Shown piece by piece: positions 506 to 62,797 of a stretch of 64,000 nt of DNA; the first letter of the stretch is position 1; each line of letters begins with the position of its first letter. The position numbers and the translations under genes are program-made. The stretch is taken from the NCBI GenBank assembly GCA_964016885.1, contig OZ024740.1:62992001-63056000 (forward strand), written 5' to 3'. Source of the DNA: Eledone cirrhosa (lineage: Eukaryota). The notes beneath the pieces are model-generated. The model was not told the origin of the DNA. It made no database searches and worked only from the letters and a program-made list of their open reading frames with translations.

Positions 506-911
506 AATTTCTCGTTTTCAAGTTATCACAAGCACACACGCGGGTATACATATACGTAATTCTTATATACACATATAACAAGAGTAATTACGATTAACAG
601 ACATTTATATGATACTGTCAAACTTTCTTTAAGATATAAATCATAATGAAAATATCATAAGAAGCACATCAACCACAAATATGACAGATGAAAATGCATT
701 ATTCTAGTGTTTAAATTTCAGATATGAATCCGTTACTTATATTTAAATAACAGCCGTACTAAGAGTGGGAAATGAAATTTCGTTTCATTTTTTCCGTTTA
801 TCGTTTTCGGTGCACCCGGCCGATTAACCCACTCGATATGCAAATTGGGCTACTCAGCCGTTAATATGCATAAGGTAAGTATATACGTTCAACAATCTGG
901 CAGGAAGGTAT

Positions 912-954
912 ACGTTGCTGACGATAGCTAATAAGCTTGAAACTAGTACAGCGT
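912..954 (+). ncRNA. Minimal type-I hammerhead ribozyme
   Basis: acgttg-CTGACGA-tagct aata agctt-GAAA-ctag-TA-cagcgt: stem I, canonical core, stem II, palindromic ACTAGT stem III; predicted cleavage after 948. Confidence 0.88.
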
Positions 955-1335
955 TCCTTTGTCAGTGTTGAACAAACGAGCAACGATGGTTGCTAGACAC
1001 TACGGCTTAATACGGGATGTTTGTTTACAAACACACCGAGCATTATAATAAATGTTCGGTGAATCCATACGTACATATATATATGTGTGCATGTATGTAT
1101 ATATATATATATACATACTGCTGTACGTCTGTATACATATATGTATGTACGTGTACATACTTATATGTAAATATCAGCCGTACTAAGAGTGGGAAATTAA
1201 ATTTCGTTTCATTTTTTCCGTTTATCGTTTTCGGTGCACCCGGCCGATTAACCCACTCGATATGCAAATTGGGCTACTCAGCCGTTAATATGCATAAGGT
1301 AAGTATATACGTTCAACAATCTGGCAGGAAGGTAT

Positions 1336-1378
1336 ACGTTGCTGACGATAGCTAATAAGCTTGAAACTAGTACAGCGT
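1336..1378 (+). ncRNA. Minimal type-I hammerhead ribozyme (second tandem copy)
   Basis: Identical to 912-954, 424 nt downstream. Confidence 0.88.
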
Positions 1379-2759
1379 TCCTTTGTCAGTGTTGAACAAA
1401 CGAGCAACGATGGTTGCTAGACACTACGGCTTAATACGGGATGTTTGTTTACAAACACACCGAGCATTATAATAAATGTTCGGTGAATCCATACGTACAT
1501 ATATATGTATGCATGTATGTAGATATATATACATACTACTGTACGTCTGTATACATATATGTATGTACGTGTACATACTTATATTTAAGTAACAGCCGTA
1601 CTAAGAGTGGCAAATGAAATTTCGTTTCATTTTTTCCGTTTATATATATATATATATTAATAAAAGGAATTCCAACTTTGTCTGATTTACTCGTTTTATT
1701 TACAATGCTTTAACATTTATAATAGTATTAGAACGAAATAGTATGGTAGAATATTAAATGTCAAGTGTTAATTGAACAAGTACTTTCATGCTTTCGCAAT
1801 CTTCAGGTTCACATTCTGTGGTGACAGTCAAGTTTGCAATTTTCAACTGTCAGTTGAAAATATATATATATATTCTAACATTCTATTGTACAGCAATTCG
1901 GGACAGATTTTCTCTAATAACCGATTTTTTCACTCACTTGTTAATTTGTGTTTGACTTGAAATATGTTGGTGAGTCCTTATGTAGGGGCCGAAGAATAGA
2001 ATTTCGACTCCTACTATCACTTAAATTTCTGAACCAGTGGTCAATCGGTTGACGATATTTTGCTGACGTGTAAGGATTTACATGCATTGTTGCATAATAG
2101 ATGCAGACAATAGATGATGTTTGCTCTCTTGCTGAATTAAGTGTGGCCGAACGTGTGTTGTATTGATGCAATTATTTGTGTCTACTCTGGGAATTTTACA
2201 TAACCTTACCTATTGAGTATGCTGAGATGCAACCGGTAATAGCAGGGATAACTTATGCTAGTCCCGTCAACTTATTATTATCATTATCACTTTCGGTGGT
2301 TTTCTGCTAGCATGTGTAGTGTGCATATTGATATTATATGCACGTATATATGCATGTTGATATGATACATCAAATAAAATCGTAATTGACAATATACACA
2401 GAAATTGAACGAAGACTGCGTTACACTCTCTTATGTAATCAGTAACGTAATCCATGATACAGTAAAAAAAGACGATATTACATATAAACTGCATTAGGAG
2501 AAAATTAGTGACGAAAATATATGAATGTTTATTTAAGCGAGCGATCGCTAACCGGAAGTGTTGACATTTCAACATTTTTAAAGAATCTTTAAATAAACAA
2601 TAAAATATATTTAATCAACCACTACGAAATTTAGTAGATGAATTATGTAATATTCATTCATTATTTATTCAAAGTAATCCAACTAATTTTACTAATGGGA
2701 TAAAACATTATAAACCGTACGCAGTCCCGCACTCCTTACTTTCTTATAGTTTAGATATA

Positions 2760-4309: not shown

Positions 4310-4434
<125 letters not shown>

Positions 4435-4635
4435 TAAACGGAATAGAAAATGCTGACAAATTGTTCACAGTTGAAAAATGGTTTAATTAGGAATAAAAGA
4501 GTATTAGTGATTGTATGGGTTAGTATTCAGTTGTGGTTTTAAGTTTTTAAGTTTTTACCGGTTGCGCATTTCTAAATGCTTTTCAAAAATAATTTTGAGA
4601 TAGAGTGTCAGTGTTGTTTGCTCTGATCTGATTAG

Positions 4636-4932
4636 CAAGGTAATTACCATTTTCTCAACTCTCACTTCCACAATACACAACAAACCCACACCACACGATA
4701 CAACCAACAACGTAGGCCACTTATAACACCACAATACAACATGGCACATAGAAACACACACCCATACTCGCAGTACAGGAACACCCCATTCAATCTACAA
4801 CCACCAACCCGAACCACATTTTACAACAACAAGGAATATAACAAGCACAGGAGACCACTTAACATCAGCAGACAACCCCTCTACCCCAACCATTTTTTAG
4901 ACACAGCACACAGATACAGGCAAACAAAATAA
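4636..4932 (+). CDS. Remnant of the upstream low-complexity PLE ORF (5'-truncated at the inverted pLTR junction)
   Basis: Frame of the 4741-4932 ORF is open from 4636 and overlaps the RT frame over 4842-4932. Confidence 0.5.
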   Translation, partial: QGNYHFLNSHFHNTQQTHTTRYNQQRRPLITPQYNMAHRNTHPYSQYRNTPFNLQPPTRTTFYNNKEYNKHRRPLNISRQPLYPNHFLDTAHRYRQTK

Positions 4933-5069
4933 CACAAGACAGGGAGGAGAAACCGATAGTAATAAAAATTATCAATCTTACTAGTGCAGAACCAACACCC
5001 AACCTTATCAACTTACTCTCCAAAGGTCTTAAATTCACACCGACCCCACTACGTCCTAACTACTATGAA

Positions 5070-7217
5070 ATGAAGGAAGACATCACAGACTTCTGTAGAA
5101 AGTTACGACTTAGTGAACAACTATTCGACCAGTACAATGAGGATGAATCATTAGCCAGAAATAGAAGCAATTACACCCCTTCAAAAGGTAGAAATAAAAT
5201 CCTGGACGAATTCTGTGAACACATCACAAACTTCCCTTACCAACACTTGCACAGACAAAAACACAAGCCAAACCTCAACAAGAAAGAATGGGAAGAATTA
5301 AATAGATTAAAAACCGACAGAACCATTACAATTAAAGAGGCTGATAAAGGGAGTACAGTAGTCCTAATGGAGACAGAATTCTATATCAACTTAGCGCTCT
5401 CCACTTTGGAAAACGAAACATACTACGAAAAGGCTGAACACTACAATCAACAGAAAATTATGAGAAACCTAAAAACTCTAATCAACCAATACAAAGAAGG
5501 ACTCACTAACAAGGAATTCAGCTTCATCACAGACTTCACAAGTAAATCCAGCCTTTTCTACGGTATCCCTAAAGTACATAAAAGCGAATCAATCAGTAAG
5601 GCATGCAAGGAAGCCACAGACATAGTCATCAATGTCCCCTCACCCAATGATCTCAAATTAAGACCTATAATAGCAGGCCCCGCTTGCGAAACGCACCGTC
5701 TTAGCAACTTCATTGATACCCTTCTCAAACCCTTCCTCAAGCACATCAAAAGCTATATAAGGGACGACCTAGATATGCTCAATCACCTCCCTAATATGCC
5801 ACTTTCTGAACAAACCCTACTAGTGACGTTCGATGTAGTCAACCTATACTCCAACATCCCCCACAACCTAGGAATAGAAGCTATCCAATTCTGGCTGGAT
5901 AACTTCCACAATGAACTCCCACAACGCATCAAAAAAGAATTCGTGATAGAGGGACTCAAATTTATCTTGGAGAACAATTACTTCGTTTTCAATAACAAAC
6001 CCTACAGGCAGAAATCTGGGACCGCTATGGGAACGAAAACAGCCCCTACGTATGCCAACCTAGTCATGGGATACCTGGAAATCACCCTCTACACTAAAGT
6101 CCTAAACAAATTTGGAAACACCCTCCACTTACACATTGAAAGGAACTGGAAGCGATATCTTGATGACTGCTTCATCCTTTGGCACGAAAACATCGAAAAA
6201 CTTAAAGAATTTCACACCCTTATAAATGGGCTCAACACAAATATTAACTTCACAATGGAATACAGCCATCAACAACTCCCCTTCCTCGACATCCTCATTA
6301 AGATCCATAACAAAAAAATAGAAACAGACATATACTACAAGCCCACAGACTCCAAGCAATACCTCCCCTTCAACTCTTGCCACCCTAGACACGTTAAAAT
6401 TAATATTCCCTACAACTTAGCCAAGAGAATCTGTACTATAGTCTCCAATAAAAACATCTGCTACTTACGGCTACAAGAACTAAAGGACACACTCATAGGC
6501 AGGGACTACCCTGCATCACTAATTGACAATGGAATCCAACGTGCCCTAAAACTCAGTACCCAGGACCTTAGACACCCTAAAGTAAATCAACCAAAACTAA
6601 AAGCTCTTCCATACATCTCCACACACAACCCCCTCAACAACGAGGCCTTTGACACCATCCTCCAGAACATCCCTGTATTGAAAAAGGACCATAGAATGAA
6701 CCAAATTCTACGAACACACGATATCATAAAAAGCAAAAGACAATCCAAGTCAATGAAAAACATCTTAACACATGCCAAAGTACTGCCAACCACAACAACG
6801 AAACCCACAGTAAAAAAATGCGATAGACCCAACTGTGGCATTTGCATCAACCTAATAGAGGGTTCGGAATTCTATTTCAAAGATGGACAACGTTTTATAG
6901 TAAAACACAATTTCACATGTGCATCGGAAAATTTAATATATGTATTAACTTGTTCAGGTTGTCGAGAACAATACATAGGCCAGACCAAAAACAGCCTCCG
7001 CCAACGCATGACTGTCCATAGATCCCAAATTAAAATACGGGAATACAGGAAAATACCACTGAGTGAACACATTGATACCTGCGCCGCCCAAAATCATCCC
7101 AACTTCAGAATCTTTCCCCTCTACAAATTTAAAGATAATGCCACCCACACCCAGCGCATCAGCAAGGAATCTTACTTCATTAACAAATACGGACCCCGTC
7201 TAAACACTTCTCCCTAA
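5070..7217 (+). CDS. PLE reverse transcriptase + Zn-finger linker + GIY-YIG endonuclease (frame open from 4842)
   Basis: GLKFTPTP upstream in frame; FYGIPKVHK, LRPII, TFDVVNLY, GTAMGTKTAPTYANL, RYLDD; CDRPNCGIC linker; NLIYVLTC..C..QYIGQT..LRQR..H. Confidence 0.95.
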   Translation: MKEDITDFCRKLRLSEQLFDQYNEDESLARNRSNYTPSKGRNKILDEFCEHITNFPYQHLHRQKHKPNLNKKEWEELNRLKTDRTITIKEADKGSTVVLMETEFYINLALSTLENETYYEKAEHYNQQKIMRNLKTLINQYKEGLTNKEFSFITDFTSKSSLFYGIPKVHKSESISKACKEATDIVINVPSPNDLKLRPIIAGPACETHRLSNFIDTLLKPFLKHIKSYIRDDLDMLNHLPNMPLSEQTLLVTFDVVNLYSNIPHNLGIEAIQFWLDNFHNELPQRIKKEFVIEGLKFILENNYFVFNNKPYRQKSGTAMGTKTAPTYANLVMGYLEITLYTKVLNKFGNTLHLHIERNWKRYLDDCFILWHENIEKLKEFHTLINGLNTNINFTMEYSHQQLPFLDILIKIHNKKIETDIYYKPTDSKQYLPFNSCHPRHVKINIPYNLAKRICTIVSNKNICYLRLQELKDTLIGRDYPASLIDNGIQRALKLSTQDLRHPKVNQPKLKALPYISTHNPLNNEAFDTILQNIPVLKKDHRMNQILRTHDIIKSKRQSKSMKNILTHAKVLPTTTTKPTVKKCDRPNCGICINLIEGSEFYFKDGQRFIVKHNFTCASENLIYVLTCSGCREQYIGQTKNSLRQRMTVHRSQIKIREYRKIPLSEHIDTCAAQNHPNFRIFPLYKFKDNATHTQRISKESYFINKYGPRLNTSP

Positions 7218-7395
7218 GACGAACCCACAACATACACACGTCAACATACATACCTACATCAGCACACATCTCTACCCACATATAAACACAATGACACACG
7301 TAAACACACATGCTCTATGGTGCAATACAAAAAAATATATGTGCATATATATGTATGTATATATGTATATATATATATTTATGTATGTAGTGAAA

Positions 7396-7429
<34 letters not shown>

Positions 7430-7831
7430 ATATATGTGTATATAGTGAATATCATTTCACACCTTTTATTGTTAAGATTGTTGATGTTCTATTAAGAGAA
7501 CCGATTTTACTGAAAAAATCGAATAATGTACACCATTTTACCAGGGGGGGAAAAAAATACTGGTCCACCCACACACGCACACACACACACACACACATAT
7601 ATACACAGACACATACACACGCGTACATCAACATACAAAGAGACTTATACACACACACACACACACACACGCACTTCTCCGTATAAGACAAAAGCTGAAA
7701 AATATCTTTTGACCTTCGAATGACTCTGCTGTGTGTATGTACGCACACACACACACACACACACACACACTTATCTTAATAGCCATTTGCTGGTGGCTAT
7801 TGTTGCAGCATCGAATACCTTACTACTACTA

Positions 7832-7889
<58 letters not shown>

Positions 7890-8210
7890 TTGTTGTGAAA
7901 GAGTCATTTCTCAATCTTGGCGCAAAACCAATTTTTTATCCACATGACCTCTACCGACCAATCAAAATTGTTTTGACCATAATCTTTGCTGGAGCCACTT
8001 TTCTAACATTTTAACATAAAAACAGTCATGGCGCAAAATCAACTTTTTACATTCACATGACCTCTACCGACCAATCAAAATTGTTTTGACCACAAGCATT
8101 TTTACAACACAAAAATAACGCTGGAGCCATTTTTTTAACATAAAAACAGGTAGAATTCCCAAAACTAATCAGATCAGAGCAAACAGCACGGACACTCTAT
8201 CTCAAAATTA

Positions 8211-8247
8211 TTTTTGAAAAGCATTTAGAAATGCGCAACCGGTAAAA
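8211..8247 (+). ncRNA. Variant minimal HHR-like motif in the PLE pLTR (mirror copy 4553-4589 on minus; homolog 58342-58377)
   Basis: ttt-TTGAAAA-gcat ttagaa atgc-GCAA-ccgg-TA-aaa; U3-A8 and A13C core changes; weak stem I. Confidence 0.55.
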
Positions 8248-8425
8248 ACTTAAAAACTTAAAACCACAACTGAATACTAACCCATACAATCACTAATACT
8301 CTTTTATTCCTAATTAAACCATTTTTCAACTGTGAACAATTTGTCAGCATTTTCTATTCCGTTTACCAATATATAATAACTTGTGTGTTACACCTCTATT
8401 CTTTTAACTATATATATATATATAT

Positions 8426-9293
8426 AGTTTTAATATAGATGAGATTCTACAGGACTAGAACTGTTTCATTCTTTAGAAATCATCAGGAATCTGGGTATCA
8501 AAAAATAAATATGGTATTTATAGGTCCCTTCAGGTGGTAGGAAAGGGTAGGGAGTGGGATGGGTGTAGGTCATTGGTTGATAGAAAAGGGAATTCATTAA
8601 AACCTAATTCTTCAAAGCTATAGTTTATATTTAGAGCAACAAAGGCAGAAAGAATTCTATAAACAAGTTCAGGATGGGGTGCCACTCCCCATTTTTAAGT
8701 TTCTCTTAAGCCAACAATGCCCAGATTTCAGGTGTGTGTCTACAAGATCATTGGGGGTCAGTCATGGTTGATGGATTCAAAGAAAAGGTAAATTCTTCAA
8801 AAGCCAACTCTTTAAGGTTTCACTTAGTGACAAAGGCCTAGAAGAATGGCTTTTGAAGAATTTCCCTTTTCTTTAAATCCATCAACCATGACTGACCCCC
8901 AATGATCTTGTAGACACACACCTGAAATATGGGCATTGTTGGCTTAAGCGAAACTTAAAAATGGGGAGTGGCACCCCATCCTGAACTTGTTTATAGAATT
9001 CTTTCTGCCTTTGTTACTCTAAATATAAACTATAGCTTTGAAGAATTAGCTTTTAATGAATTCCCTTTTCTATCAACCAATGACCTACACCCATCCCACT
9101 CCCTACCCTTTCCTACCACCTGAAGAGACCTATAAATACCATATTTATTTTTTGATACCCAGATTCCTGATGATTTCTAAAGAATGAAACAGTTCTAGTC
9201 CTGTAGAATCTCATCTATATTAAAACTTCTATACTCTGCAATGTATTGAGTACCTTACTTACTGTGGTTACCTCCGATTCAACCCGGAATAAC

Positions 9294-9297
<4 letters not shown>
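8426..9297. mobile_element. Large fold-back non-autonomous PLE end (381-bp inverted arms plus ~70-bp tail)
   Basis: 8426-8806 vs 8847-9227 near-perfect inverted repeat; related pieces at 21336-21425, 21620-21830, 29300-29400 and 62545-62740. Confidence 0.85.
9161..9211 (+). ncRNA. Type-I hammerhead ribozyme (mirror copy 8442-8492 on minus)
   Basis: agattc-CTGATGA-tttctaaagaat-GAAA-cag ttctagtc ctg-TA-gaatct. Confidence 0.85.
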
Positions 9298-17827: not shown

Positions 17828-19265
17828 CCCTCCTCTAGAAATCTAGAGATGAACGGCCTGACAATACAACCTCTACAGTCAGGTGACAACTACAGATATC
17901 TTGGACAGGATGAAAATGTCAGATATGATGGATCCATAAATAAGGAGAGAACCAGAACTGAATAGCTCAGAAGAGTAAAGAAAATATGGTCATCAGAATT
18001 GTCAGCGTACAACAAGTACTTATGCTGTGCCAATTCTAACGCCAACATTTGGCCTGCTGAACTGGTCATTGCAAGAACTAAGTGAGATGAATGTTAGCAT
18101 TCGAAAACTTCTCAGTGTCACTGGGAACTTTAACATAAATGGTGATGTGGATAGGCTATACTTCTCACGCAAAGAAGGTGGCCGGGGTCTAAAATCCATA
18201 TTAACATCATATGAGACCCGGATAGTAACACTGAAACAACATCTTCAACAGAGGAAAAAGGTTGGCAACCATCTTGCCCAGGTTTATGAGCATGAAGAAG
18301 AAAATATCATTAGGATAGCCACTGGTCTGGAGGAGAGATATGGAATAAAGCCTGATATAAATCTCTCACCCAGAGAAATCGGAAGATCCTATTCAATGTT
18401 CAAACAAGATGAAAAAATTGACCCATTTACAGAAAAAGTTGTGCATGGATACTTGAGACGTAAAACACAGACCATAGAGGGGATAAACCACTCAAAAAGC
18501 CTGGCATGGAGTTCCGACAAGTTTATGACATCACACCTTGAGAGATATCTCTATGCAATACAGGAACAACAACTCCCTACCAAATATCTGTTGCACAAAA
18601 GAGGAGGGACATCAGCTGACAATTGCAGGCTATGTAAAACAAAGATCGAAGATGTAAGCTACATTGTTGCCAGCTGCGAAAGAATGTCATCTCGCTACTA
18701 CCTCCCCATGAGACACGATGGGATAGCTAGAACCATCTGGAATGCACTTCGGAAAACAAAATTAAAAACAAACGGGGAAGAATATATTGAGACAGATGGC
18801 ACTAAGGAATACTGGTAGAACCTGAAAATAAAAACTGCCACCAAATTAAAGCACAACCGGCCTGATATTGTTGTTTGGGACCACACATTGAAAACGTGTT
18901 CTGTTGTGGAGATCAGCTGCCCACTTGATGTAAACGTTGTCAGAAAAAATACAGGAGAAGGAGGACATCTACGGACTATTGATGAGGAGTTTACAATTCC
19001 AGTATCCAAGATACACCTTTAGCTCCATACCCATCATTATTGGAGCTACGGGTTATATACCAACCCGCTTGGACCAATGTATAACTGAACTTGGATTTGC
19101 GGACAAAGAGCGCAGCTCCCTAATTCATAGTCTACAAATGGCTGCGATAGCTGGCACCTTCAAAATTTGCAAAACATTCTTGCGATTCAAGGGATGACAA
19201 TTTCTTTTCTTTTACAACCTTGCCACCAGGAAGGTGGCCGGTCAAAAATATACTAAAAATTAAGA
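17828..19265 (+). mobile_element. 5'-truncated, frameshifted REL-endonuclease non-LTR retrotransposon (R4/Dong-like)
   Basis: YRYLG; DRLYFSRKEGGRGL; CRLC..EDVSYIVASC..RHD; KHNRPDIVVWD..VEISCP; PIIIGATG. Confidence 0.85.
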
Positions 19266-23485: not shown

Positions 23486-24530
23486 TCAAGGCGGTTGATT
23501 TCTCATAGGAGTGTCAATCCAGTTACAGATCAGGTGCGGTCTCAGATGAGGACAGCATCTGAAGATCTTAGTCTTTGAATTAAGGCAAGCGGAAGTGTCT
23601 CTCAAGTTTAGCAAAATCCTATACTTTTCTGTGGTACACAAAGAACAATTCTTTGTGCCCCTTTGGTACTCCCTCGAATGGTCTAATATAGACCAATCAA
23701 TAGAGTACGGGATGTTACTATCCTTGAGTTCCCACACCTTACTTGCGAGGGCCGTTGATGTTCGTTTATCGGAGTGCTTAAAAGAAGCGACATGTGAGTA
23801 AAATCTGGTTTTAAACCTGTCCTGGGTCATACCGACATATCGCTCACTCCTGGCTGGCTGGTTGTTGATTACTGGTGTTATCGTAGCCTCATAAACGACA
23901 GATTTAGTGTTACATCTACCCTGCAATGGGCATTCGTCCGGCTTCCTGCAACTGCATCCTGGATTTATTCTCGTCCGGTTTGAGCTGGTGATTTTGGACT
24001 TCATAGAGAGGCAACAAGAGTAGCTGATCTTGACTACGTTCCTATTAAATATCTTAAAGTATCTATGGTTAGGAGGAAAATGTTTGTCTAATAGTTCAAG
24101 GAATTTCCTTCCTACATTAGTTTTGACAGTTAGAGAGAAGGGGGTGTGAACCAAATAATCTTCCTTTTCCTGTTATTGTGGTTAGTTTTAGGGGGGAGGG
24201 GGGTAGGTAAATAAGAATTTTTTTCTTAAAACCGCTGTTCTTAAGGGCTTTATTATAATAAGGGGCGGCTTTATTAAAAATGTCTATAGACGAAGATAAG
24301 GTAGAAATCCTACGGCTAATGTTAGGAATAAGATTATTAAAAACTATAGGGGGATGGCAAGACTTTTTGTGTATATACCTAAGATTTTCGTTAGGTTTAT
24401 GGTAGGGTTTAAAAGAGACAGTAAGTAAATCAAGATTAATATCAAGAAAGTTAGCATTAGTAAGGTTCGTATCTATAGTAATTTTAAGGTTAACATTAGC
24501 AAAAGTATTGATTAAATCTTTACGGAAATA
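23486..24530 (-). pseudogene. Naiad-like PLE, RT thumb + GIY-YIG (frameshifted, 5'-truncated)
   Basis: NFLDINLDL..KPYHKPN..HPP; CSCRKPDECPLQGRC; VVYEA..YVGMT..FKTRFYSH; CSLCTTEK. Confidence 0.88.
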
Positions 24531-26820: not shown

Positions 26821-27551
26821 AGCATTAGTATGCATATAAATACACACATGTATACATATGTACATGTACTCAGCTTTTCAGACTAGCTGACACTCACTGT
26901 AAAGTGTCTAGTGAAAAGCTGAGTACATGTACATATGTATACATGTGTGTATTTATATGCATACTAATACTTCCGTATACATATGTAGATGTACACTTTA
27001 ACTTAATTGTTTAAGAGTCAGTCATACAAAAGTGAGTTAGAAGCGAAACGAAATTTAATTTCGTTTCGTTATTTGTTTTTATCGTTTCCGCTGAACCGGT
27101 GCGTACAATGACTCACGTTCTATGCAAATTAGTCTACCCACTACTAATTTTCATAGAAAAAGCATATAACGATATGTGCTTTTACAATTCTCCAGAGAAG
27201 CCGGAAGATGGGTAAATATTGCTGATGAGATGTAATAACATCGAAACTAGTCCAATATTCCTGTCTGGCCCTCTGGAGAATAGAGGAAATGTGTTTCCTT
27301 GAAAACTCGTATGACTCTAAAACCCGGTCCGCCTGTGTGGTTACATACAGACTAGCTGACACTCACTGTAAAGTGTCTAGTGAAAAGCTGAGTACATGTA
27401 CATATGTATACATGTGTGTATTTATATGCATACTAATACTTCCGTATACATATGTAGATGTACACTTTAACTTAATTGTTTAAGCGTCAGTCATACAAAA
27501 GTGAGTTAGAAGCGAAACGAAATTTAATTTCGTTTCGTTATTTGTTTTTAT
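26821..27551 (+). mobile_element. Retrozyme-like partial tandem repeat (469-bp period) with inverted 5' segment
   Basis: GACTAGCTGACACTCAC at 26881 and 27350; 26821-26880 is the reverse complement of 26912-26971; homologous to 736-1641 and 51468-52240. Confidence 0.85.
27215..27259 (+). ncRNA. Minimal type-I hammerhead ribozyme
   Basis: aatattg-CTGATGA-gatgt aata acatc-GAAA-ctag-TC-caatatt; all stems perfect; GUC cleavage after 27252. Confidence 0.92.
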
Positions 27552-29299: not shown

Positions 29300-29400
29300 T
29301 AGAAGGAGCTTCTACAGGACTAGTACTGTTTCATTCAGATGAAGTTTCCTGAAGATTTCATCTGAATGAAACAGTACTAGTCCTGTAGAAGCTCCTTCTA
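29300..29400 (+). ncRNA. 101-bp fold-back containing an HHR (29344-29392)
   Basis: 44-bp perfect arms; gtttc-CTGAAGA-tttcatctgaat-GAAA-cag tactagtc ctg-TA-gaagc. Confidence 0.8.
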
Positions 29401-29412
29401 TAATATAAAAAA

Positions 29413-29930: not shown

Positions 29931-31216
29931 TTACAGTTTGTTCAAAAGAATGCTTTTGATAACAACATTCTTAGTCGACTGGGTGTCTTTCAGAAACACT
30001 CGGACATTTTCTTTTCGTTTTCCGCGGGTAAGGGCAACATAGAGTTGACCGTGTTGGAATACAGGTCGTTCCAGATAAACTAACACATTTTCCATAGTTT
30101 GTCCTTGTGCTTTATGAATAGTCATAGCGACGCACGATTGAACTGGGAATTGGCTTCGCTGCAAAGGGATATCCTCACCTTCGGATAGATTAATTCTTAT
30201 TCTAGGTATCATAACAATCTCATTTCTGAAAGCAGCAGTGTTGATTCTTGCTACTATGAGATGTCGTGCAGTTCTTCCACGATCATGCGCGTTCCATTAC
30301 AAAGCCTTGGAGGATTCAAGTTTCTCATTAGAATTATTGGTGATCCTATTTTCAATTCCAGGTTATGTGGTGGCAGTCCTGATAGTTCAACCGAATCAAG
30401 GAATTCAGTTGGGAAATAAGTGGCATTGGCACCATCACTCACAGAATTATAGGATCGGTACTCTTTTATGGTTCCAGGGAAGCGTCTGATACAGGTGGAA
30501 TTGATGCTTCTCATCATTTCATTGAGAGGTACTAAGATGCAATTGTTCGAAAACATTTCAGTTGGATTGTCGAATGAGGGGTAGATGAAATCAATGCATT
30601 CTTCCATAGTTGTTGCTTGGAGAATCATTTCTTTTGGAAAAATAATTTCCGCATTTTCATTTTTTGGGATCTTATCTTCTCCAATATCCAATAGGAACTC
30701 TGAATAGTCTCCTGCTCCCCCACACAATCGCATGTTTGTCTTCAAATGAAATTTTTTAAAGCTTCGCCATAAGTAGGATTTTTTAATGCAGGCATTTTCC
30801 ACATCTGCTTCATTTCCTCTTTTCACTACCGGAAGAAGCTGACGGAAATCTCCACAGCAAATTGTCAAAATTCCACCGAATGCCTCATTGTTGTCGCATA
30901 TGTCACGCAGAGTAAGGTCAACAGCTTCGAAGCTTTCCCTCCGAATCATAGGACACTCGTCCCAAACAATCAGCCTTGTATGCTGGAATAGGTTTGTCGT
31001 CTTTGAGTTTTTATCAATGTTGCACAGACCATTTTCTTTCACTGCTATTGGTATTTTGAACCTAGAATGCGCCGTTTTTCCACCAGACATCAGTGTTGCC
31101 GCAATGCCAGATGACGCAACAGCAATAGCCACATCGCCGTTTCCCCTAACTTTTGAAAGGATTAAGTTAAGCAAGAATGTCTTTCCTGTTCCACCTGGAG
31201 CGTCAATGAAAATCAA
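29931..31216 (-). CDS. Helitron Pif1-like SF1B helicase segment (split into ORFs 30254-31216 and 29931-30212)
   Basis: DAPGGTGKT; IVWDECPM; GDFRQLLPV; MRNLNP.RLCNGTR; TIHKAQGQT; HGQLYVALTR. Confidence 0.93.
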
Positions 31217-33119
31217 TGCAAATGTTCCTCTCTAAACTGTTACAAATGAAGTCGTACACATGTTTTTGGTCACTATTCAATAAAGGTTCCCTTTCTTCTA
31301 CAAATTGTCGCTGTTCTTCTTTGTTGTATTGCAATTCATGCAATAACTCCAAATTGCCAATATCCTGATTAGCGACAATATTATTTGGCATTGGCAAGTT
31401 AAAGTCACTAAGACTTTTGCCCAGGTTGTTAAGTTTGTCTTCAAAATACAGAAGACATTGTTCATAATGTCTCTCGCTAATCAAAAATTTAGAGTTTCTT
31501 GTAGCTCTTTTTTCTATCTGAAGGTAATCCTCAGACAGCGAATTCTTAAATCGAGCCCATAAAGCATTGGAATTGTCAATTTCCGTATTTGTGAGGAGCA
31601 CGATGAATAGATCTCTCATGGCTTTGGGAAGCCTTGTTCGCTCAGCATCTTCCAGAGTCTGCTGCCAATGATCATCTGATTGAAGCAAACCTTTCTCTCT
31701 GCAAACGTCTTTGAATAATGGCAGGAGTTCTCCATCACACATTTTCAAAAAGTTGAAAGATACTGGTCCTTTGACGTGATGCAGAAGGAGTCTTAAATAA
31801 TATAGGTCACCACTTCGTGGGGAAACGGTGTACACTCGTCCCAAAACGTTCGCCTCAAAAATTCCTGGATACTGCTCAACTGTTTTCCCCACCTTCCTCC
31901 TTTCCCATCTCTTATTATTCCATGTGTAAAACTTTGGTACGTCGGCATAATACAATGTTTTTGCAAACGGATCGCGAGTGCAAAGATCCATGAACTCAGT
32001 CAGAGTTGTCTTAGCCATGTTATTGTTTACTTTAACAGCAGCATTGACCCGAAAGAAGATTTGATTTTTCTCAGGTAGATGAACTTGAAGGCGAACTACG
32101 GCCGGTTCTCTCTCATGAATTGGAAATCCAAGTACCGAGGCAACAGCTTCTGAAGGACCGATATATCTTCCTGTTAAATACTGTGTTATCTCATCTTCCC
32201 TGTTCACTCCAAACATTGCCTGATCACTGCCCTTCATGGTATATTTTATAACGTATTTGATCGATTTCACGGAAGAGCACATCTCTACGTTTAGGTGGCA
32301 GTTGAACAGTTTTAATAGTTTCATATTGTAGGGAACCACCCATTCTGAAGTTATATTTTGGCTTTCCATTCTTTCTTGGTGCCCTTCAAATCCTCCCATT
32401 TCAGGAGACCGTCTTCTGTACACAGGATAAGAGTCCCCTCCACACAATGTATGTTCAACAAAAGGCTTAGGGTACCGCTTACTGCATGTTCCATCTTTCC
32501 AACACGGTGAATTGTTAGAGCAATTCGGACCATGGATCATGTGCTTCAGCACCAATTTATGACCCTCTGGATCTTTGTTTGGATCTGGTATTTCGGCTTG
32601 AACGAATTTATCATATTCCTGTGGTCTGGGCTTGGTGGCTTCATTGAGCCATAACAAACAGTGCACATGAGGAAGACCTCGCTTTTGATATTCGACTGTC
32701 AGCACGTAATCAATGCAGTTGCCAAATAAGCCATCTACTCCAGTAAGATGCTTTCTGAACAGTTTCCGTTTCAGGTCAAATACTCTGGCAATTAAATCTG
32801 GCCTGTCGTGTGGCTTCTGATTCAGGAATAGGTTTTGCCGGATTTCGGGCCAGTTTGGATTGCATGTCATTGTGATGAACAACGAAGCATCTCCGTACTT
32901 CCGTATGTACATCATGGCATCCTGGCATCGCTCCATCATATATCTCGGTCCACCAACAAATGTAGAATAGAGTATGATTCGTCTGCCGATGTTGCGAAAA
33001 TCGTCATCATCATTCAATGCATCAGTAAGGCCCGTGTATGTTGTAGATCGCAATGATGTTTGATTCATTTGGATGTATCTCAGCCTATCTCCTTGAATCT
33101 TTGCAGCCATGTCAACCAA
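31203..33119 (-). CDS. Helitron Rep (HUH endonuclease) segment, frameshifted relative to its neighbours
   Basis: LFITMTCNPNW; EYQKRGLPHVHCLL (HUH); KYVIKYTMKG (Y2 motif). Confidence 0.93.
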   Translation of the reverse strand: MVDMAAKIQGDRLRYIQMNQTSLRSTTYTGLTDALNDDDDFRNIGRRIILYSTFVGGPRYMMERCQDAMMYIRKYGDASLFITMTCNPNWPEIRQNLFLNQKPHDRPDLIARVFDLKRKLFRKHLTGVDGLFGNCIDYVLTVEYQKRGLPHVHCLLWLNEATKPRPQEYDKFVQAEIPDPNKDPEGHKLVLKHMIHGPNCSNNSPCWKDGTCSKRYPKPFVEHTLCGGDSYPVYRRRSPEMGGFEGHQERMESQNITSEWVVPYNMKLLKLFNCHLNVEMCSSVKSIKYVIKYTMKGSDQAMFGVNREDEITQYLTGRYIGPSEAVASVLGFPIHEREPAVVRLQVHLPEKNQIFFRVNAAVKVNNNMAKTTLTEFMDLCTRDPFAKTLYYADVPKFYTWNNKRWERRKVGKTVEQYPGIFEANVLGRVYTVSPRSGDLYYLRLLLHHVKGPVSFNFLKMCDGELLPLFKDVCREKGLLQSDDHWQQTLEDAERTRLPKAMRDLFIVLLTNTEIDNSNALWARFKNSLSEDYLQIEKRATRNSKFLISERHYEQCLLYFEDKLNNLGKSLSDFNLPMPNNIVANQDIGNLELLHELQYNKEEQRQFVEEREPLLNSDQKHVYDFICNSLERNICIDFH

Positions 33120-33168
33120 ATATTGCTGAAATAAACGACCACCTCTGAGAAGTTGGTTGAATTCATTC

Positions 33169-34635
33169 TCAATGGTTCATTATTCGATAGGCATAGTAGC
33201 GCATCGGTGTCAATTTCTTGATGTTGCTCATTAACAGCTCATGATGCCATCCATCATCGCCAAAAGGAAAAAATAGAACATACTGCAAACTATCATAGGA
33301 CCGATGGGACTCTGAGATTATTTTCAGTTGTCCGCCTTTTTCTTTCAACGCGATGTGCCGTGCTTTTGATTGAAGTTCGGTGCTGTTTTGTATAATAACA
33401 GCAACTTCATTTTCAGTTTGTGCATTGAATCTTCTGTCATGTTTCATTGCTGATCTCCTATCAGGATCAATAATAATCGAAGCTTCAGGAATATTTTTAA
33501 TTTGTTCTTTTGCCAGTTGAAATGACGCAACATAAGGGTTATATTGTCTCAGTATAATTTCTAATAATTCAACTATGTCGCGCTGAATGCCATCGTTATG
33601 GAGTATCCTGATCCTTAAATCAACACTATCCTGAGGATCCAAGAAGTAAATTTGAAGAAATTTGGGTTGTTCATTGGGATTAGGAGTTAAGGAACCGATG
33701 TAATGATGAATTTGACCATGAATAACAATAGAAGGATTCCATCCACTCCTTGAGGAACGAACTTCTTTGGCCCCAAAAGATGTCATTTGGAATAAGCAGT
33801 TGTATTGTCTGAGGTTCTTCCTGAACTCGTTTGCTCTAGGTTGATCTGTACTAAATAAATTTTGAAGTTCTTGGGGTAAAGGCTGCAGATTCCCTAGCCT
33901 GACTTTTCCATTTATACAGCAAAAGTTAGCAGTTTCACCATGAAAAAGCATTGCATGGCAACAGACACAGATCTTATTCATTTGTCCAACATCAGCAGAG
34001 AGGTCACGTCGTTGAACTGTCTTTGCTCTATCCTTCTGTTCCACCAGACGTGCAGCTTTCTGAGCATTCGATTCCTGATCTTTCTTTCTTCTGTTTCTTT
34101 CCCTCTGTTCTGCCAGACGTGCAGCTTTCTGAGCATCCGATTCCTGATCTCTCTTTCTTCTGTTTATTTCCCTCTGTTCCGCCAGACGTGCAGCTCCCCG
34201 AGCCTCCGATTCCTGATCTCTCCTGCTTCTGTCTCTTTCTCCCTGTTCTGCCAGACGTGCAGCTCTCCGAGCCTCCGATTCCTGATCTCTCCTGCTTCTG
34301 TCTCTTTCTCCCTGTTCTGCCAGACGTGCAGCTCTCCGAGCCTCCGATTCCTGATCTCTCCTGCTTCTGTCTCTTTCTCCCTGTTCTGCCAGACGTGCAG
34401 CTCTCCGAGCCTCCGATTCCTGATCTCTCCTGCTTCTGTCTCTTTCTCTCTGTTCCACCAGACGTGCAGCTCTTGCTTTATCAGTCTCATCGATCCTTCT
34501 CTTCGCATGCCTGTCCTGGTCTTGTTGTTGGCATTGACCACTATCTTGCTCACCTTCTTCGGCTTTCCTTAGCCGCACTCTCTTCCCATTATCTGTAGTC
34601 GAACCAGATGTTTTCTTTCTTCCTCGTTGAGGCAT
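33169..34635 (-). CDS. Helitron RepHel N-terminal segment (STPR-like 23-aa repeats, Cys-rich Zn finger)
   Basis: Seven 69-bp repeats (RRDQESEARRAARLAEQGERDRS); C..C.A.LF.GE...CC..GKV; R.YN..F.MTSFG; YD.LQY.LFFP.G..GW. Confidence 0.9.
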   Translation of the reverse strand: MPQRGRKKTSGSTTDNGKRVRLRKAEEGEQDSGQCQQQDQDRHAKRRIDETDKARAARLVEQRERDRSRRDQESEARRAARLAEQGERDRSRRDQESEARRAARLAEQGERDRSRRDQESEARRAARLAEQGERDRSRRDQESEARGAARLAEQREINRRKRDQESDAQKAARLAEQRERNRRKKDQESNAQKAARLVEQKDRAKTVQRRDLSADVGQMNKICVCCHAMLFHGETANFCCINGKVRLGNLQPLPQELQNLFSTDQPRANEFRKNLRQYNCLFQMTSFGAKEVRSSRSGWNPSIVIHGQIHHYIGSLTPNPNEQPKFLQIYFLDPQDSVDLRIRILHNDGIQRDIVELLEIILRQYNPYVASFQLAKEQIKNIPEASIIIDPDRRSAMKHDRRFNAQTENEVAVIIQNSTELQSKARHIALKEKGGQLKIISESHRSYDSLQYVLFFPFGDDGWHHELLMSNIKKLTPMRYYAYRIMNH

Positions 34636-35389
34636 GATTTAAGAATAGAAAATCGTATTCACCTGACAAAAATTTCTTATTACCTCAAAAATTATTTTTC
34701 TTAAATTATCAATTTAAAATATTTCTAAATAATGAAAATATTGTCTGTTTAAAGAAAGCTAAATATAAATATTTACTCTACAAACGATTCGTATTTTTCA
34801 AATCACATTCACTTATAAAATACTTTTTGATAATTAAAAAAAAAAATTAGCGTATTCACTTGTAAATAGTTTTAAAAACAATTAAAATATTATCTGTGCA
34901 AAGAAGGCTAAAATATAAACACTTAGAGTGTGAACAACTTTTGGAAATCACATTCACTTAAAAATATTTCTAAATAATTAAAATATTTTGTTTAACAAAA
35001 GCAAAAATATTTACTGTAAAAGCAACTCGTATTTTTCAGTCATATTCACTGAACAGTTTTAATTTTAATAATTACAATATCGTCTGTTTAGTGAAAGCTG
35101 AAATATAGATACTTAAAAGTACAAAGAAGTTGTAATGTTGAAATCATATTCACTGAGAAATCACTGAAATTGGTGTATGTAATGATTATGAAAAATATTT
35201 TTTGCATAATGAAAATATTTATTTAATATTTACGCCAAAATTGTTTTATCCCCTTTGTATTCCAATTACGGAATATTTTCCCATTATGCACCGTTTTGGC
35301 TATTTACGAAGGTAGAGATAGAGTGTGCAAGCAAACAAACAAACAATCAAGATCAAAGTTGGGTCACCGATATTTCAAAGTACCCGAGA

Positions 35390-36270
35390 AATATATATAT
35401 TGCCTGTACAGATAATCAAAGTGTGTATACATTTTTCGGGGACATCATATATATATATATATACCGGGGTCCCTAAAAATGTATACACTATTCTAATATA
35501 TATATTGCCCGTACAGGTAATCAAAGTGTGTATACATTTTTCAGGGACACCATATATATATATACCGGGGTCCCTAAAAATGTATACACCATTCTAATAT
35601 ATATATTGCCTGTACAGATAATCAAAGTGTGTATACATTTTTCGGGGACACCATATATATATATACCTGGGTCCTGAAAAATGTATACACCATTCTAATA
35701 TATATATTGGTTGTACAGAAAATCAAAGTGTGTATACATTTTTCCGGGACACCATATATTTATATATATATACTGGGGTCCCTAAAAATGTATACACCAT
35801 TCTAATATATATATTGGCTGTACAGGTAATCAAAGTGTGTATACATTTTTCGGGGACATCATATATATATACCGGGGTCCCTAAAAATGTATACACCATT
35901 CTAATATATATATTGCCTGTACAGGTAATCAAAGTGTGTATACATTTTTCGGGGACACCATATATATATATATATACCGGGGTCCCTAAAAATGTATACA
36001 CCATTCTAATATATATATTGCCTGTACAGGTAATCAAAGTGTGTATACATTTTTCGGGGACACCATATATATATATACCGGGGTCCCTAAAAATGTATAC
36101 ACCATTCTAATATATATATTGGCTGTACAGGTAATCAAAGTGTGTATACATTTTTCGGGGACACCATATATATATATACCGGGGTCCCTAAAATGTATAC
36201 ACCATCCTAACAAATAATGCATGTATAGGCAATCAAAGTGGGTATACATTTTTTGGGGGACAACCTGTAT
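35390..36270. repeat. Minisatellite of 8.5 units (99-107 bp), each a MITE-like inverted-repeat unit separated by (TA)n
   Basis: CCGGGGTCCCTAAAAATGTATACAC (or close variant) starts at 35464, 35565, 35666, 35773, 35872, 35977, 36078 and 36179. Confidence 0.92.
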
Positions 36271-36416
36271 ATACACAAATATGAACATATATATAAAGAG
36301 AAAGTGTGTGCAAGCAAGCAAGCAGACATCGAGATCAGAGTTCTAGTAGTATATAGATTGCTTCAGTTTTCATAATCGACATTCGTGTTATTTCCACCCC
36401 CAAATATTTATAAGTA

Positions 36417-37694: not shown

Positions 37695-39388
37695 TATTCT
37701 TTGAGTCTCAGTCATTGATGTTAGTTAACTGGAAAGTTTGTTGAAATGAATATCAAGCCACTACCTGCAGCCTCAGATATTCAGGACGTATCGGATGGTT
37801 CTTGCTGTTCCCAGCAAGCATGCCTTTTGAAGTGTTCCAAAAAGCGGGGCTGGACTAATTTTCTTTAACCATCCTTGGAAACTTTTTGAGATAGTACCTA
37901 GTGCGCCTATGACAATCGGGACCACTTTGACTTCATGGCAGTTCCAAATCCTTTTTACCTCCCACTTTACGTCCTGGTATCGGTTAATTTTCTCCCTCTC
38001 CTTCTCTTGCACTCTCGTGTCGAATGGACAGGCCACATCCACAATCAGGCACGATCTTTTTTCTTTGTCCAAAACCACCAGGTCAGGTCTATTGTGTTCC
38101 GGTTTCTTGTCCGTCTGTATCCTAAAATCCCACAGTACCTTCACCTGATCGTTTTCTATCACCGACTCTTGCTTATGCTCATACCACTTCTCAGAATGTG
38201 GTAAATTGTTTACTTTACATAGGTGCCAGTGGATCACCCTGCCAATCACATCATGTCTCCAGCCCTTATAGTGAGTCTGGGCTAGGTGTTTACACTCGGA
38301 TACAATGTGAGCCACAGTCTACTCGCTCTCTCCACAGATCCTGCACAGTGGGCTAGCCTCCTCCTTGTAAATATGGTGTTTCAACCACTTCGTTTTGAGG
38401 GCCTGCTCCTGCGCAGCCATTAAAATTCCTTCTGTAGCCTTTTTAAGGTCTCCTCTTTTCAACCAGTTCCATGTCTGTGAATCTCTAAATTCAGTTTTCT
38501 CAAAGAAGGTACTATGAAGGGATTTTTCCTGAAGGCTGCTCTTTCTCCTTGATGTTATTTCCTCCTTGGACTTCCCCTGGCCTACTGTCTCCTCCTTCAG
38601 TACAGTTCTGAGCATTGGCTCCTTACTATCAGTCACGTATTTGTGTAGGTTGTTTTTCTCCATCTGAACACAGTCCTCTAAGCTGATAAGACCTGTTCCA
38701 CCCTCAAAACTCCTCTTGTGGAACATGTTGTAGATAGTCAATAGCTTCCTAGTCTTCCTATCCATTTCTTTCTGTTCAGCAACATTCCATCTCAGAATTC
38801 TCGCATTGTACCTAATAATAGACACAGCTCGGGAATTTACTGCACTTATGGCATTCCTACTGTTCAGATGTGACTTTAATACGCTCCTTACTCTCCGAAT
38901 GTATTCAGTTCTTATCAATTCCTTCATTTTTTTTTGTTCTTGATGTCATCAGCCTCCAGAACGCCCAAATACTTGTATCCTTCTTCAGAGTCAATTTCCT
39001 TTATCATCTCACCCGTTGGTACCTGGATTCCGTTACTTCTGATCAACTTACCCCTCTTCATCACAATGACTCCACACTTACTAATACCAAATTGCATACA
39101 TATATCATTGGTGAAAATACGGACAGTGTCAACAAGCACATCCAACTCCTTCTCACTCTTCCCGAAGAGCTTAAGATCGTCCATGAAGAGGAGGTGATTG
39201 ATGGTAATCCTTCCCTTTCCCAACCTGTATCCTGCTCTCACTTTTCGCAGTACACTCGTCAGGGGCATCAGGGCAAGGACAAACAACAGAGGAGACAGAC
39301 TATCTCCCTGGAAGATACCTCTCTTGATCTTCACGCTTCCCAAGGATTCTCCAGTTGATGTTAACTCTGTTTCCAAGGACTTCATACT

Positions 39389-39428: not shown

Positions 39429-42400
39429 AGTTGCATTTATCTTGCTTTATGTTCATACGAGTTATCACCAAGTCACAACCAGTGACCTCAAGAGACAACA
39501 AGGTCCACCATGTTCAAGAAAGAACATACATATTCACACATGCATCTTTAGTGTTTAGACTTGTGATGTACTTATATTGACAGAATCTTCCTTAGTATAT
39601 GGTTAGTTCCCATTAATACTATCTTTTGTATTTCTCCTATACGCGGGTTTCCTGGGATTTGCGATATGTAATCATTAGACCCCTTAGGTATCATTCCCAG
39701 AGCACCTACAACCACTGGTATTGTTTTAGTTCTCAATTTCCACATTTTTCCAATTTCTATCTCCAGGTCCTTATACTTGCTCAATTTTTCAAATGTTTTT
39801 ATAGATACATTCTTGTCTATTGGAACAGACATATCAGTTAGCAGGCATACCCTCTTTTGAAAGTCTTTCAATATTATATCAGGTCTGTTTGCATCTATTT
39901 TTCGGTCTGTTTGGATGCTAAAGTTCCACAAGATTGAGATGTGATCTTTTTCAAGTATGGGAGCTGGTTGATGCTCCCACCAGTTCTTTTGATGGGGCAG
40001 GTAAAAATGCTTACACATTATCCAATGTATATATTGTGCAGCTCTGTCATGCCTGTTTAGGTATTCGGTTGGAGCTATAGGACTGCACATTGAAATTATA
40101 TGGTCAATGGTCTCTGGTTGTTTTTTTGCATACACGGCATAATGGGCTGCACCCATTTTTTATTATGTTGGCTTGGTAATTTTTTGTTGGCAGACACTGA
40201 TCTTGTGCCGATATAATCTGTCCTTCAGTCTCCGATTTCAGTCCAGAGGATGCCAACCACTGATGGGTTAAAGTTTTGTCAACATCAGGATTGTTAGCTC
40301 GCTCTGGGTATTTTCCATACAGAGGCTTTTCTTGCCATTTCTTAGCCAGTTTCTGTAGCAGTTCTTTCTTTGCAGTTACTTTTACCTGCTTTGCTTTTTC
40401 TGTGTTTTCCATTTCAGCAGTAAATGGGACTTCTGAAATTTGTAGTCCATTACTGTATCTTTGTGCATCTTTTGTAATGGAATATGATCTTTTGATGCTT
40501 TCGTGTTTCAAAACGAGTTTGATCATCCAATCATGTGATTCCCTTAGATATGTAGATAATCCAATTGTTGCAGTTTTCAACGCAATGTCTAACTGGATTA
40601 ACCCACGTCCTCCTTCTTTCCTAGGGAGATATATTATATCTATATCTGCCTTAGGGTGATGCATTCTGTGCATGGTTAAGAATTTTCGAATTTTTGTATC
40701 GAACCTACGGATCTCTGTGCTTGACCAGTTGATGACATTGTAACTGTAGGTTACTACTGGTATGGCAAGCGTGTTTATGGCATCGATCCTATTCCTTGCA
40801 TTCAATTCCGTTCTTAAGATTGCTCTTACTCTGCGGTAACATTTCTTCCTTATCCCTCATTGTCGAGTGCTTGATTCCGTCTCCTTCACAAACACCTAGA
40901 TATTTGTAAGTTTTTTCTTGATCAAGTTCTCTTATCACGTTCCCCCGATCAAGATTAATGTCTGAACTCTTCAGCAGCTTTCCTCTGGTGAACGTTGCTT
41001 TGGCGCATTTTTCTAGTCCAAATTCCATTTTAATGTCATCACTGAACTGCTTCACAGTGGATAATAGCCCTTGCAATTGTTCATCATTTTTTGCAAATAG
41101 TTTCAGGTCATCCATGTAGAACAGGTGATTAATGGTTTTGTCATAGACTTTATATCCATGTTTTGTTTCATTGAGCATTTTACTTAATGGTATAAGTGCG
41201 ATGCAGAATAAAAGCGGTGATAAAGAGTCACCCTGAAAAATTCCACAATTAATATTAACTTCTCCAGCTTCCAGTGATTTTGTTTCACTATTCAAAAGCA
41301 GTGTCGTTTTCCATGTCTTCATACTGAATGACAAAAACCTCCTGACAACGGGGGATACTTTGAAAATCTCTAAACATTTTTCAATCCAACTGTGTGGCAA
41401 ACTATCAAATGCTTTTTTATAATCTATCCAAGCAATCGATAGATTTTTGTGTCTATTATGACAATCTTCCAGTATCATTTTGTTAACCAGAAGCTGATCC
41501 TTACAGCCATATGAGCCTCGTTTACACCCTTTCTGCTCAATGGGAAATAGGTCATTTGTTATCAGGTGGTCATATGTGTATTCAGTTAGGACTGATGTTA
41601 AAATTTTATACATTGTGGTCAAGCAAGTTATCGGTCTGTAATTTTTGGGATTGTTTGTCTCATCATTCTTCGGAAGCAGGAATGTAATGCCGTTAACTAG
41701 CCAAGAAGGTATCTTTTCTGGCTCCTTAACTATTTCATTGTAAAGTTGGGCTAACAGCTCATGAGACTCTGTGAAGGCATTTATCCAAAAGTTTTGTATT
41801 TTGTCTTTTCCTGGGGATTTCCATTTGCTGGTTTTTCTTAGAGCCAAGCGCAACTGTTCAACTGTTATATTTTCCCATGTTTGTTCCTCAAGGTGAGCTG
41901 TATCTTTCATTTGTCTGTCTATCCCTGGGGCATGTATGTTATGAACTTTTTCTTCGGCCCAGATCTTTTCCCAGAATTCTTGCACTTCCTCCTTGGGTGG
42001 TATTGATTTAGCAGTTATTGTTGACTTACCAATTTTTCTGTAGAAGTTTCTTTGGTTGTTTTTGAACATATTATTGTCCTTATAGAATCTAGATCGTTTT
42101 TCAAAGCGACTTATACGAGCAGCTTTGGCCGACACTTTTCGCTTGATTATTTCTATCAGCATGTCTATGTCACTTGTTGATTTTATACTGTACTTTTTTT
42201 TCAATTTTCTAAGTCTAGTTTGTTTAACATGTTCACCTACTTTATAGTTTGTTAAAATTTCTATGTCAGATCGGAGAAGGTTTATTTGGCGATTGATGTT
42301 CTCTTGCCAAGTAGATTTCTTGTGGGAATTCCTTTGTTTTTTCATCTTCACTCCACATAAGTGAGTGGTGACTTTAGCCGATGCATAATAGAGATGATTT

Positions 42401-48250: not shown

Positions 48251-48378
48251 ATATATATATATATATATAAATTTCAGGTTATCAATAATGTAGTGATAAT
48301 ATATCGTTACGTTAGAGATGAACAGCGTGCGTGTAGGTTTGCTCAACGAGTATAAATTATATTCCGGAGAAAATGTAG

Positions 48379-51369: not shown

Positions 51370-51461
<92 letters not shown>

Positions 51462-51467
51462 ATATAT

Positions 51468-52417
<950 letters not shown>

Positions 52418-62740: not shown

Positions 62741-62797
62741 ATATATATATATATTAATAATATACGTGAAGACTAAAATCTGAAGGAGGCTTGATGA

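Follow-up and report, generated by a model that had tools for sequence, protein, structure and literature searches.

Non-LTR retrozymes are an already known class of element. As far as the available parts of two reports extend, the metazoan examples (Cervera and de la Pena 2020, PMC7229834; Li et al. 2026, 10.64898/2026.07.22.740005) combine a type I hammerhead ribozyme with low-GC tandem units that run from monomers to multimers, hold no ORF, are highly self-paired, co-occur with Penelope elements and have a short palindromic helix III. The repeats analysed here share these features in a host that is probably a cephalopod, with units of 310–500 bp compared with the reported 170–400 nt. The host assignment draws on molluscan haemocyanin genes in the genome, for which the best single-unit PDB matches are 4yd9_C and 1js8_A, from squid and octopus. 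Short palindromic helices III and cleavage of dimers are usual for metazoan hammerheads in the accessible sections of PMC4209133 and PMC7229834, the latter describing dimer-dependent cleavage of amphibian repeats. Neptune-clade Penelope elements, in the available text of PMC4209133 and 10.1101/2021.04.23.441226, show the same partial tandems, inverted 5′-truncated copies and linker-linked (TA)n bias, and their type I hammerheads may act as dimers. Unlike Penelope terminal repeats, the retrozymes here lack an ORF and carry a canonical, not minimal, hammerhead with a helix I bulge and a 6-nt loop II.

Two other hammerhead repeats have a promoter of their own. Newt satellite 2 contains an octamer, and the schistosome satellite has a tRNA-like promoter. 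A citing passage in PMC2220036 attributes an snRNA promoter used by Pol II to newt satellite 2 and a Pol III promoter to Sm-alpha. The element described below differs from these in matching host U6, U6atac and RNase MRP genes, not U1/U2 genes. Neither the ribozyme nor the class of element is new, so covariation in the ribozyme is in itself confirmatory; what the analysis adds are the U6-type element and the Penelope-type ends, from which we deduce, at the level of DNA, the likely mechanisms of transcription and insertion. A literature search covering main texts and few subscription journals returned no description of a hammerhead repeat with a U6-type element.

We analysed a 64,000-nucleotide stretch of DNA, here called the window, with three retrozyme loci belonging to families A, B and C (Table 1). 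Units measure 310–502 bp with a GC content of 34–37%, and no ORF of 120 aa occurs across the three loci. The family A array stops at a fixed 3′ site (...CCGTTTAT) followed by (TA)n, and the family B copy closes with a T5 run (27545–27549), the fixed 3′ end and (TA)n. The inverted arm of family C terminates at the main fixed 3′ site, abutting (TA)n at 51369–51468, and its forward arm at the second fixed 3′ site, abutting (TA)n at 52237–52412.

Table 1. Retrozyme copies and the candidate mobilising element in the window.
Feature	Position	Strand	Remarks
Family A retrozyme array	734..1643	+	424-bp unit ×2.2, two hammerheads
U6-type upstream element, family A	835..856	+	ATGCAAAT at 838-845; 11.7 bits
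TATA-like box, family A	880-887	+	
Type I hammerhead A, copy 1	906..958	+	core 918-948; cleavage predicted after 948
Helix I of hammerhead A, copy 1	911-917/949-955	+	plus UA bulge and distal helix
Second ATGCAAAT of family A array	1262-1269	+	
Type I hammerhead A, copy 2	1330..1382	+	core 1342-1372
Penelope-like element, candidate mobilising partner	4425..8375	+	inverted 211-nt end copy
RT plus GIY-YIG open frame, 784 aa	4863-7217	+	CX4CXXC linker
Inverted short piece of family B unit	26825..26879	-	5′ side of insertion; ends approximate, by eye
Family B retrozyme	26880..27551	+	~1.4 units, one hammerhead
U6-type upstream element, family B	27119..27140	+	ATGCAAAT at 27122-27129; 21.3 bits, exceeds all 119,956 background positions
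TATA-like CATATAA, family B	27163-27169	+	
Type I hammerhead B	27210..27262	+	core 27222-27252; GUC, cleavage predicted after 27252
Distal helix I, hammerhead B	27210-27212/27260-27262		
UA bulge, hammerhead B	27213-27214		
Helix I, hammerhead B	27215-27221/27253-27259		
Family C inverted arm with hammerhead	51468..51815	-	core 51797 to 51767
Family C forward arm	51816..52236	+	ATGCAAAT at 51879-51886 (22.0 bits); hammerhead core 51979-52009 (GUU)

A hammerhead descriptor matched the window nine times, five times in copies of retrozyme type with GAAACTAGT (918, 1342, 27222 and 51979 on the forward strand, 51797 on the reverse) and four times in Penelope-type families; each of 100 dinucleotide shuffles gave none. 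The preliminary description had counted three retrozyme-like loci; its three copies are present, but the copies at 1342(+) and 51797(−) bring the total to five. They have the architecture of a type I hammerhead, with a CUGANGA/GAAA/NUH core, three helices and an open helix I. Hammerhead cleavage triplets follow the NUH rule, and the triplets GUA, GUC and GUU were quoted correctly for the three loci; genome-wide, GUG occupies this position in 248 of 40,587 ACUAGU cores. The helix I strands read out earlier are also present (acgttg 912–917 with cagcgt 949–954, aatattg 27215–27221 with caatatt 27253–27259, and aatattg 51972–51978 with caatatt 52010–52016), family A having one U·G and a terminal U·U in this helix. 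The helix II strings exist as well, but agct/agct does not form four pairs: in family A the base of the helix is a U·U mismatch, and the supposed fourth pair belongs to the 6-nt loop. Axolotl HHR_Amex2, in the portion of its description available, has the same U·U at the base of helix II. A UA bulge follows seven helix I positions and the 6-nt loop keeps A29, A30 and A33 in 14 of 14 representatives; loops I and II may form a tertiary contact. Hammerhead B has UAAUAA as loop II and the palindrome ACUAGU.

The preliminary description had argued from covariation among three copies for a selected ribozyme fold. Among these, 5 of 17 pairs show double changes and 49 of 51 cells are paired, a level reached by 3 of 500 shuffles. 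The copies at 27215 and 51972 have an identical helix I and represent sister subfamilies B and C in a flank tree, so the three copies amount to about two independent lineages; alone, they are weak evidence of a selected fold. The case strengthened once further subfamilies were added. Across 14 hand-picked representatives (A1–A4, B, C, D and E), 89.5% of cells are paired and 12 of 17 pairs have double changes, and the covariation score of 0.588, which is inflated by relatedness, compares with 0.225 after shuffling (0 of 500 as high) and at most 0.155 in slid controls. On a flank-only tree of 7 representatives, a conservative count of same-branch double changes came to at least 9, the expectation being 3.8 (P=0.0017), and 73 of 77 cells are paired in this set compared with 28–36 when slid; family E was excluded because its flanks clustered apart from the others. 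These comparisons, together with the rarity of GUG at the cleavage site, support a hammerhead fold that was selected and preserved as the repeat families diverged.

A covariance model built from the 14 genomic representatives finds the five window copies at 76–79 bits, a result that is circular for three of them. Across the window, no Rfam family reaches its gathering threshold: Hammerhead_HH9 (RF02275) scores at best 31.8 bits, under its gathering value of 52, because the models cover short helix III forms poorly. The 27215 copy nevertheless aligns with the whole length of HH9 (E 2.1e-6), sharing the UA bulge and A-rich loop II and differing in a helix III reduced to the palindrome.

The 3.0-Gb genome contains ~61,000 cores. 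ACUAGU had been described as invariant, which holds among the window copies and not genome-wide, where the centre of helix III is UA, GC, AU or CG by family and palindromic each time. Cores with the ACUAGU centre UA number 40,587 (control 9), and those with other centre dinucleotides 20,615 (control 266), mostly from family E (ACGCGU). Among the first matches listed for non-UA centres, 98 of 100 are palindromic, mostly GC; in a search for AU and CG centres that also permitted AG and CU, the palindromic pair accounts for 85 of the first 100 matches listed (both counted by eye). Four non-palindromic centres together yield 353 cores (control 65), most of which are one mutation away from the large families. 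Since two neighbouring bases cannot pair within one strand, palindromic centres fit pairing between two copies. The four palindrome centres thus point to a double hammerhead, and their amplification in one genome provides a natural covariation argument for it.

Folding favours the double hammerhead over two single ones by 8–15 kcal/mol in five of five dimers, with the 6-bp helix III of the double form appearing in the free MFE of three of the five; monomer A folds with z=−7.3. Of the Xenopus dimers predicted in the accessible part of Li et al. (10.64898/2026.07.22.740005), just one in nine cleaved in vitro. As the 27215 copy stands alone and the family C copies lie on opposite strands, dimerisation in cis would be open to the A array alone; there, copy 2 is the predicted double-hammerhead partner of copy 1. 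The lone ribozyme at 27215, with a helix III of 1–2 bp, is predicted to be weak in cis. Elsewhere, arrays reach 31 units, as in one insertion with 31 units in one orientation, a single unit in the opposite one and TA at both ends; most of its units differ from the middle unit at 0–4 positions, and two shorter units at 7 and 11.

The insertions have a characteristic anatomy. Among elements whose 3′ end is visible, the flank there is TA-rich in 28 of 52, compared with 2 of 47 5′ flanks and a background of 4–7%. An inverted copy of the element itself lies at the 5′ side in 27 of 47 elements, and 3′ ends gather at two sites per family. In a replicate of 40 further A3 loci, 28 of 36 3′ ends fell at the same two sites and 16 of 36 were TA-rich by the same strict cut-off. 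In one set, 59 contigs enter (TA)n at window position 801. A fixed 3′ end, a variable 5′ end, an inverted 5′ copy and a microsatellite target together match Penelope-type insertion; the retrozyme ends lie in (TA)n, where a target-site duplication is unreadable. Penelope elements with a CX2-5CXXC linker are known to show truncated copies in inverted orientation and a bias to (TA)n (available text of 10.1101/2021.04.23.441226), and the sections at hand of PMC7229834 and Li et al. do not mention fixed (TA)n 3′ ends or inverted 5′ arms.

The candidate partner in the window, at 4425..8375, has (TA)n as its left-hand neighbour and a short run of TA to its right. Judged by its linker, not by a tree, it is a candidate Neptune-type element, and a protein search with its ORF found 1,075 relatives, almost all without a name. 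Two direct junctions join retrozyme and Penelope ends (loci L114 and L179/L212). Likeness between retrozyme 3′ ends and this one Penelope element, the only one compared, is suggestive for A1 alone, where 6 of 1,482 windows are as high (25–260 for the others). A tblastn search with four window proteins, covering 89 loci, found no Penelope element with an exact retrozyme unit. The insertion ends and the two junctions bear on the question of what mobilises retrozymes, for which Penelope is the suggested partner: a Neptune-type Penelope RT is likely to copy them into (TA)n microsatellites. Template jumps at the cleavage site, an idea prompted by L114, were not enriched (33 versus 25 pattern matches), nor were foreign junctions there (7 of 30 inspected versus 6 of 25).

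The Penelope element has further features of its own. Its last 207–211 nt form a recurrent unit (also in L159, L164 and L169). The 5′ boundary shared by these copies, near window position 8168, lies downstream of a repeated CCAAT-containing block and may be the transcription start of the element, whose 3′ region contains no CUGANGA core. A second Penelope-like frame (49090–50601) lies within 48373–51375 between 520-nt inverted arms, and that element ends in the (TA)n tract in common with the family C retrozyme.

We also asked where selection acts. In 28 copies of subfamily A3, helices have diverged by 3–5%, about as much as the flanks (3.5–4%), and the 234 pair cells include no double change. 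Selection on individual inserted copies was thus not seen; the equal decay of A3 helices and flanks places selection at replication, on source elements, with inserted copies, by this comparison, decaying neutrally. One array (G000:C3:12272007-12294236) comprises 36 or more family A units that have GUG and an altered helix II, which means that local arrays can grow without a cleavable site. Neutral decay of inserted copies and this GUG array are compatible with satellite DNA spreading at the DNA level, the ribozyme being a relic of Penelope terminal repeats and the covariation a trace of old selection. We regard this as highly improbable: an RNA intermediate is needed to account for scattered copies whose 3′ ends are fixed, whose 5′ ends vary and which carry inverted arms; even sister families as young as B and C are separated by a helix II double change; and no dispersed family among the matches listed has GUG or a centre that is not palindromic.

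In families A–D, TATGCAAAT(T/G)AG lies 80–100 nt upstream of the core, and the element is joined to a core at 29,927 genome places (control 0). TATGCAAAT is one of eight exact words of at least 7 nt common to A1 and C, which are 60% identical. In the host, the element occurs at −76 to −78 with a TATA at −30 in three of four TATA-bearing U6 upstream types and in the top U6atac gene; a U6 array of another type (L219) and 7 of 8 U6atac loci lack it. Of 26 U6 loci, 7 had no 5′ end in the matching and six looked like retrocopies. A matrix built from four host upstreams (three U6 types and the top U6atac gene) scored families A–D at 10–22 bits, compared with a window background maximum of 12.3 bits over 119,956 positions. 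The held-out RNase MRP promoter scored 13.8 bits at −77, seven U1/U2 upstreams at most 1.8 and RNase P 2.0. An element common to four related retrozyme families and host U6, U6atac and MRP genes bears directly on how retrozymes are transcribed, and in A–D it may well act as a promoter.

Retrozymes seem to be without promoters in the available part of the review PMC7761336, and the published model includes none. Read-through from neighbouring DNA could supply transcripts of these non-LTR retrozymes too, with ATGCAAAT kept for RNA structure or RT recognition and the U6 match arising by chance. Family E amplifies in long arrays without a U6-type or U1/U2-type element (its matrix maximum is 6.6 bits, and not upstream), and the ATGCAAAT block forms one arm of a predicted RNA hairpin. 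The TATA-like box, moreover, stands 41–43 nt from the element in A–D and 46–48 nt in U6, U6atac and MRP, outside the host spacing, and TATA-like strings are cheap in so TA-rich a unit. Insect snRNA promoters hold this spacing within 1–2 bp (accessible portion of PMC1761439), so the shorter retrozyme spacing counts against a plain copy of a U6 promoter. We still consider this promoterless reading unlikely. Of the hairpin arms, the 5′ one, TATGCAAAT, is constant in A1, A2, A3, B, C and D and the 3′ one variable; orientation and order (element, TATA-like box, 25–35 nt, ribozyme) are as in U6; the match reaches beyond the octamer and the matrix recovers the held-out MRP promoter; and the octamer is enriched in unrelated single-copy hammerheads, occurring at −60 to −112 in 3 of 27 against 0.05 expected.

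If the U6-type element is a promoter, the polymerase has to be considered. Pol III terminates at T runs, and the first T5–T7 run lies just ahead of the main fixed end in A1, A2, A3, B and C monomers. A T5–T6 run mid-body at 215 in some B/C units is a counter-example, and the absence of T4 runs from the unit body is a weak signal (P 0.05–0.09 each). An octamer (POU-factor) site with the nearer TATA could drive Pol II instead, the T runs being irrelevant and multimers made directly. The spacing 4–5 nt shorter than in U6, the T5–T7 runs that Pol III would need to pass, integrated A1 and A2 copies that reach 5–6 nt beyond the T run, and the precedent of an snRNA-type promoter in newt satellite 2 (citing passage, PMC2220036) all agree with this. 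The host U1 and U2 genes, which are transcribed by Pol II, share a different element with a TCAGT core at −56 to −58, however, and retrozymes have none in position, whereas the retrozyme element marks U6, U6atac and MRP. We place Pol II on the unlikely side and judge Pol III somewhat likelier for retrozymes.

Several other signals were examined and rejected. 5′ ends do not peak where transcription is predicted to begin: the bin from −20 to −11 holds 7 of 102, neighbouring bins hold 1–7, and the replicate gave 1 of 36. A U1/U2-type promoter picked out by eye in family E scored just 3.2 bits, and one in A1 reached 11.6 bits but at −168 and was not common to the other A–D families; a check of family E for tRNA-type A/B boxes found no A box. 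Among host genes (L213–L261), the U6/U6atac/MRP and U1/U2 elements lie at −77 and about −57, respectively, and have at most an AAATNAG core in common. The single RNase P RNA gene (G000:C24:12936134) carries a U1/U2-type element (15.5 bits), not a U6-type one; its TATA lies some 6 nt more distally, and the gene closes with a T10 run.

Taken together, we think it probable that these repeats constitute a non-LTR retrozyme superfamily of ~60,000 copies with a compensatorily kept type I fold, double-hammerhead cleavage, an internal U6-like promoter and Penelope copying into (TA)n. In the cycle we propose, the element and TATA-like box would start transcription about 8–28 nt upstream of the core, and most transcripts would stop at the T5–T7 run near the unit end. 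Read-through transcripts would hold two ribozymes whose palindromes pair into the 6-bp helix III, and the double hammerhead would excise a unit-length RNA, promoter sequence included, for a host ligase to circularise. Penelope RT would then use a fixed internal UUAU site for priming on a (TA)n target that has been nicked, and roll round the circle, producing tandem arrays, with a second priming producing the inverted arm. If only transcribable, cleaving sources amplify, it follows that families covary with one another and that the copies of any one family decay neutrally.

More tentatively, a retrozyme lineage may have captured a host U6-type promoter, with the tandem layout and the palindrome-gated double hammerhead keeping it mobile and seeding ~30,000 promoter cassettes; we hold this to be possible but below an even chance. 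An ordinary retroelement would lose such an upstream promoter on copying. Terminator read-through and the requirement for two ribozymes would instead select RNA that includes the promoter, to be circularised and then inserted by a Penelope-driven rolling circle.

Other hammerheads and mobile elements lie near the retrozymes. Another abundant hammerhead family, in which helix III is longer, occupies 8426–9296, 29343–29408 and 62557–62754 (cores 8486−, 9167+, 29349+, 62672− and 62687+). Its copies form inverted pairs, as Penelope terminal repeats do; helix II (UUUC...GAAU) is similar to the family E helix II, and CUAG or ACUAGU appears in loop III of some copies. Further hammerhead-like motifs with a long helix II occur at 23084(−), 21127(−), 44291(−), 56157, 57227 and 62053, of which the first follows a Penelope endonuclease fragment (23486–24172, −) at a distance of roughly 400 nt. 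A dispersed family with CUGAUGA and GAAACCGGUC, in which helices I and II are poorly paired, is present at 28784 in the window and at L062, L065, L066, L069, L083, L087 and L089; in the window copy, GGAACCCGG replaces the GAAA motif. Families A and C appear at low depth in contigs of two other organisms, for which kinship, diet or contamination are possible explanations. The window also contains a Helitron with Rep/helicase frames (PF14214) and an adjoining 101-bp tandem repeat, which together occupy 29931–34638 (−) and 35390–36273, and non-LTR retrotransposon frames in pieces (37773–39388, 39572–43225 and 17979–18818), with RVT_1 at 40789–42810 (−).
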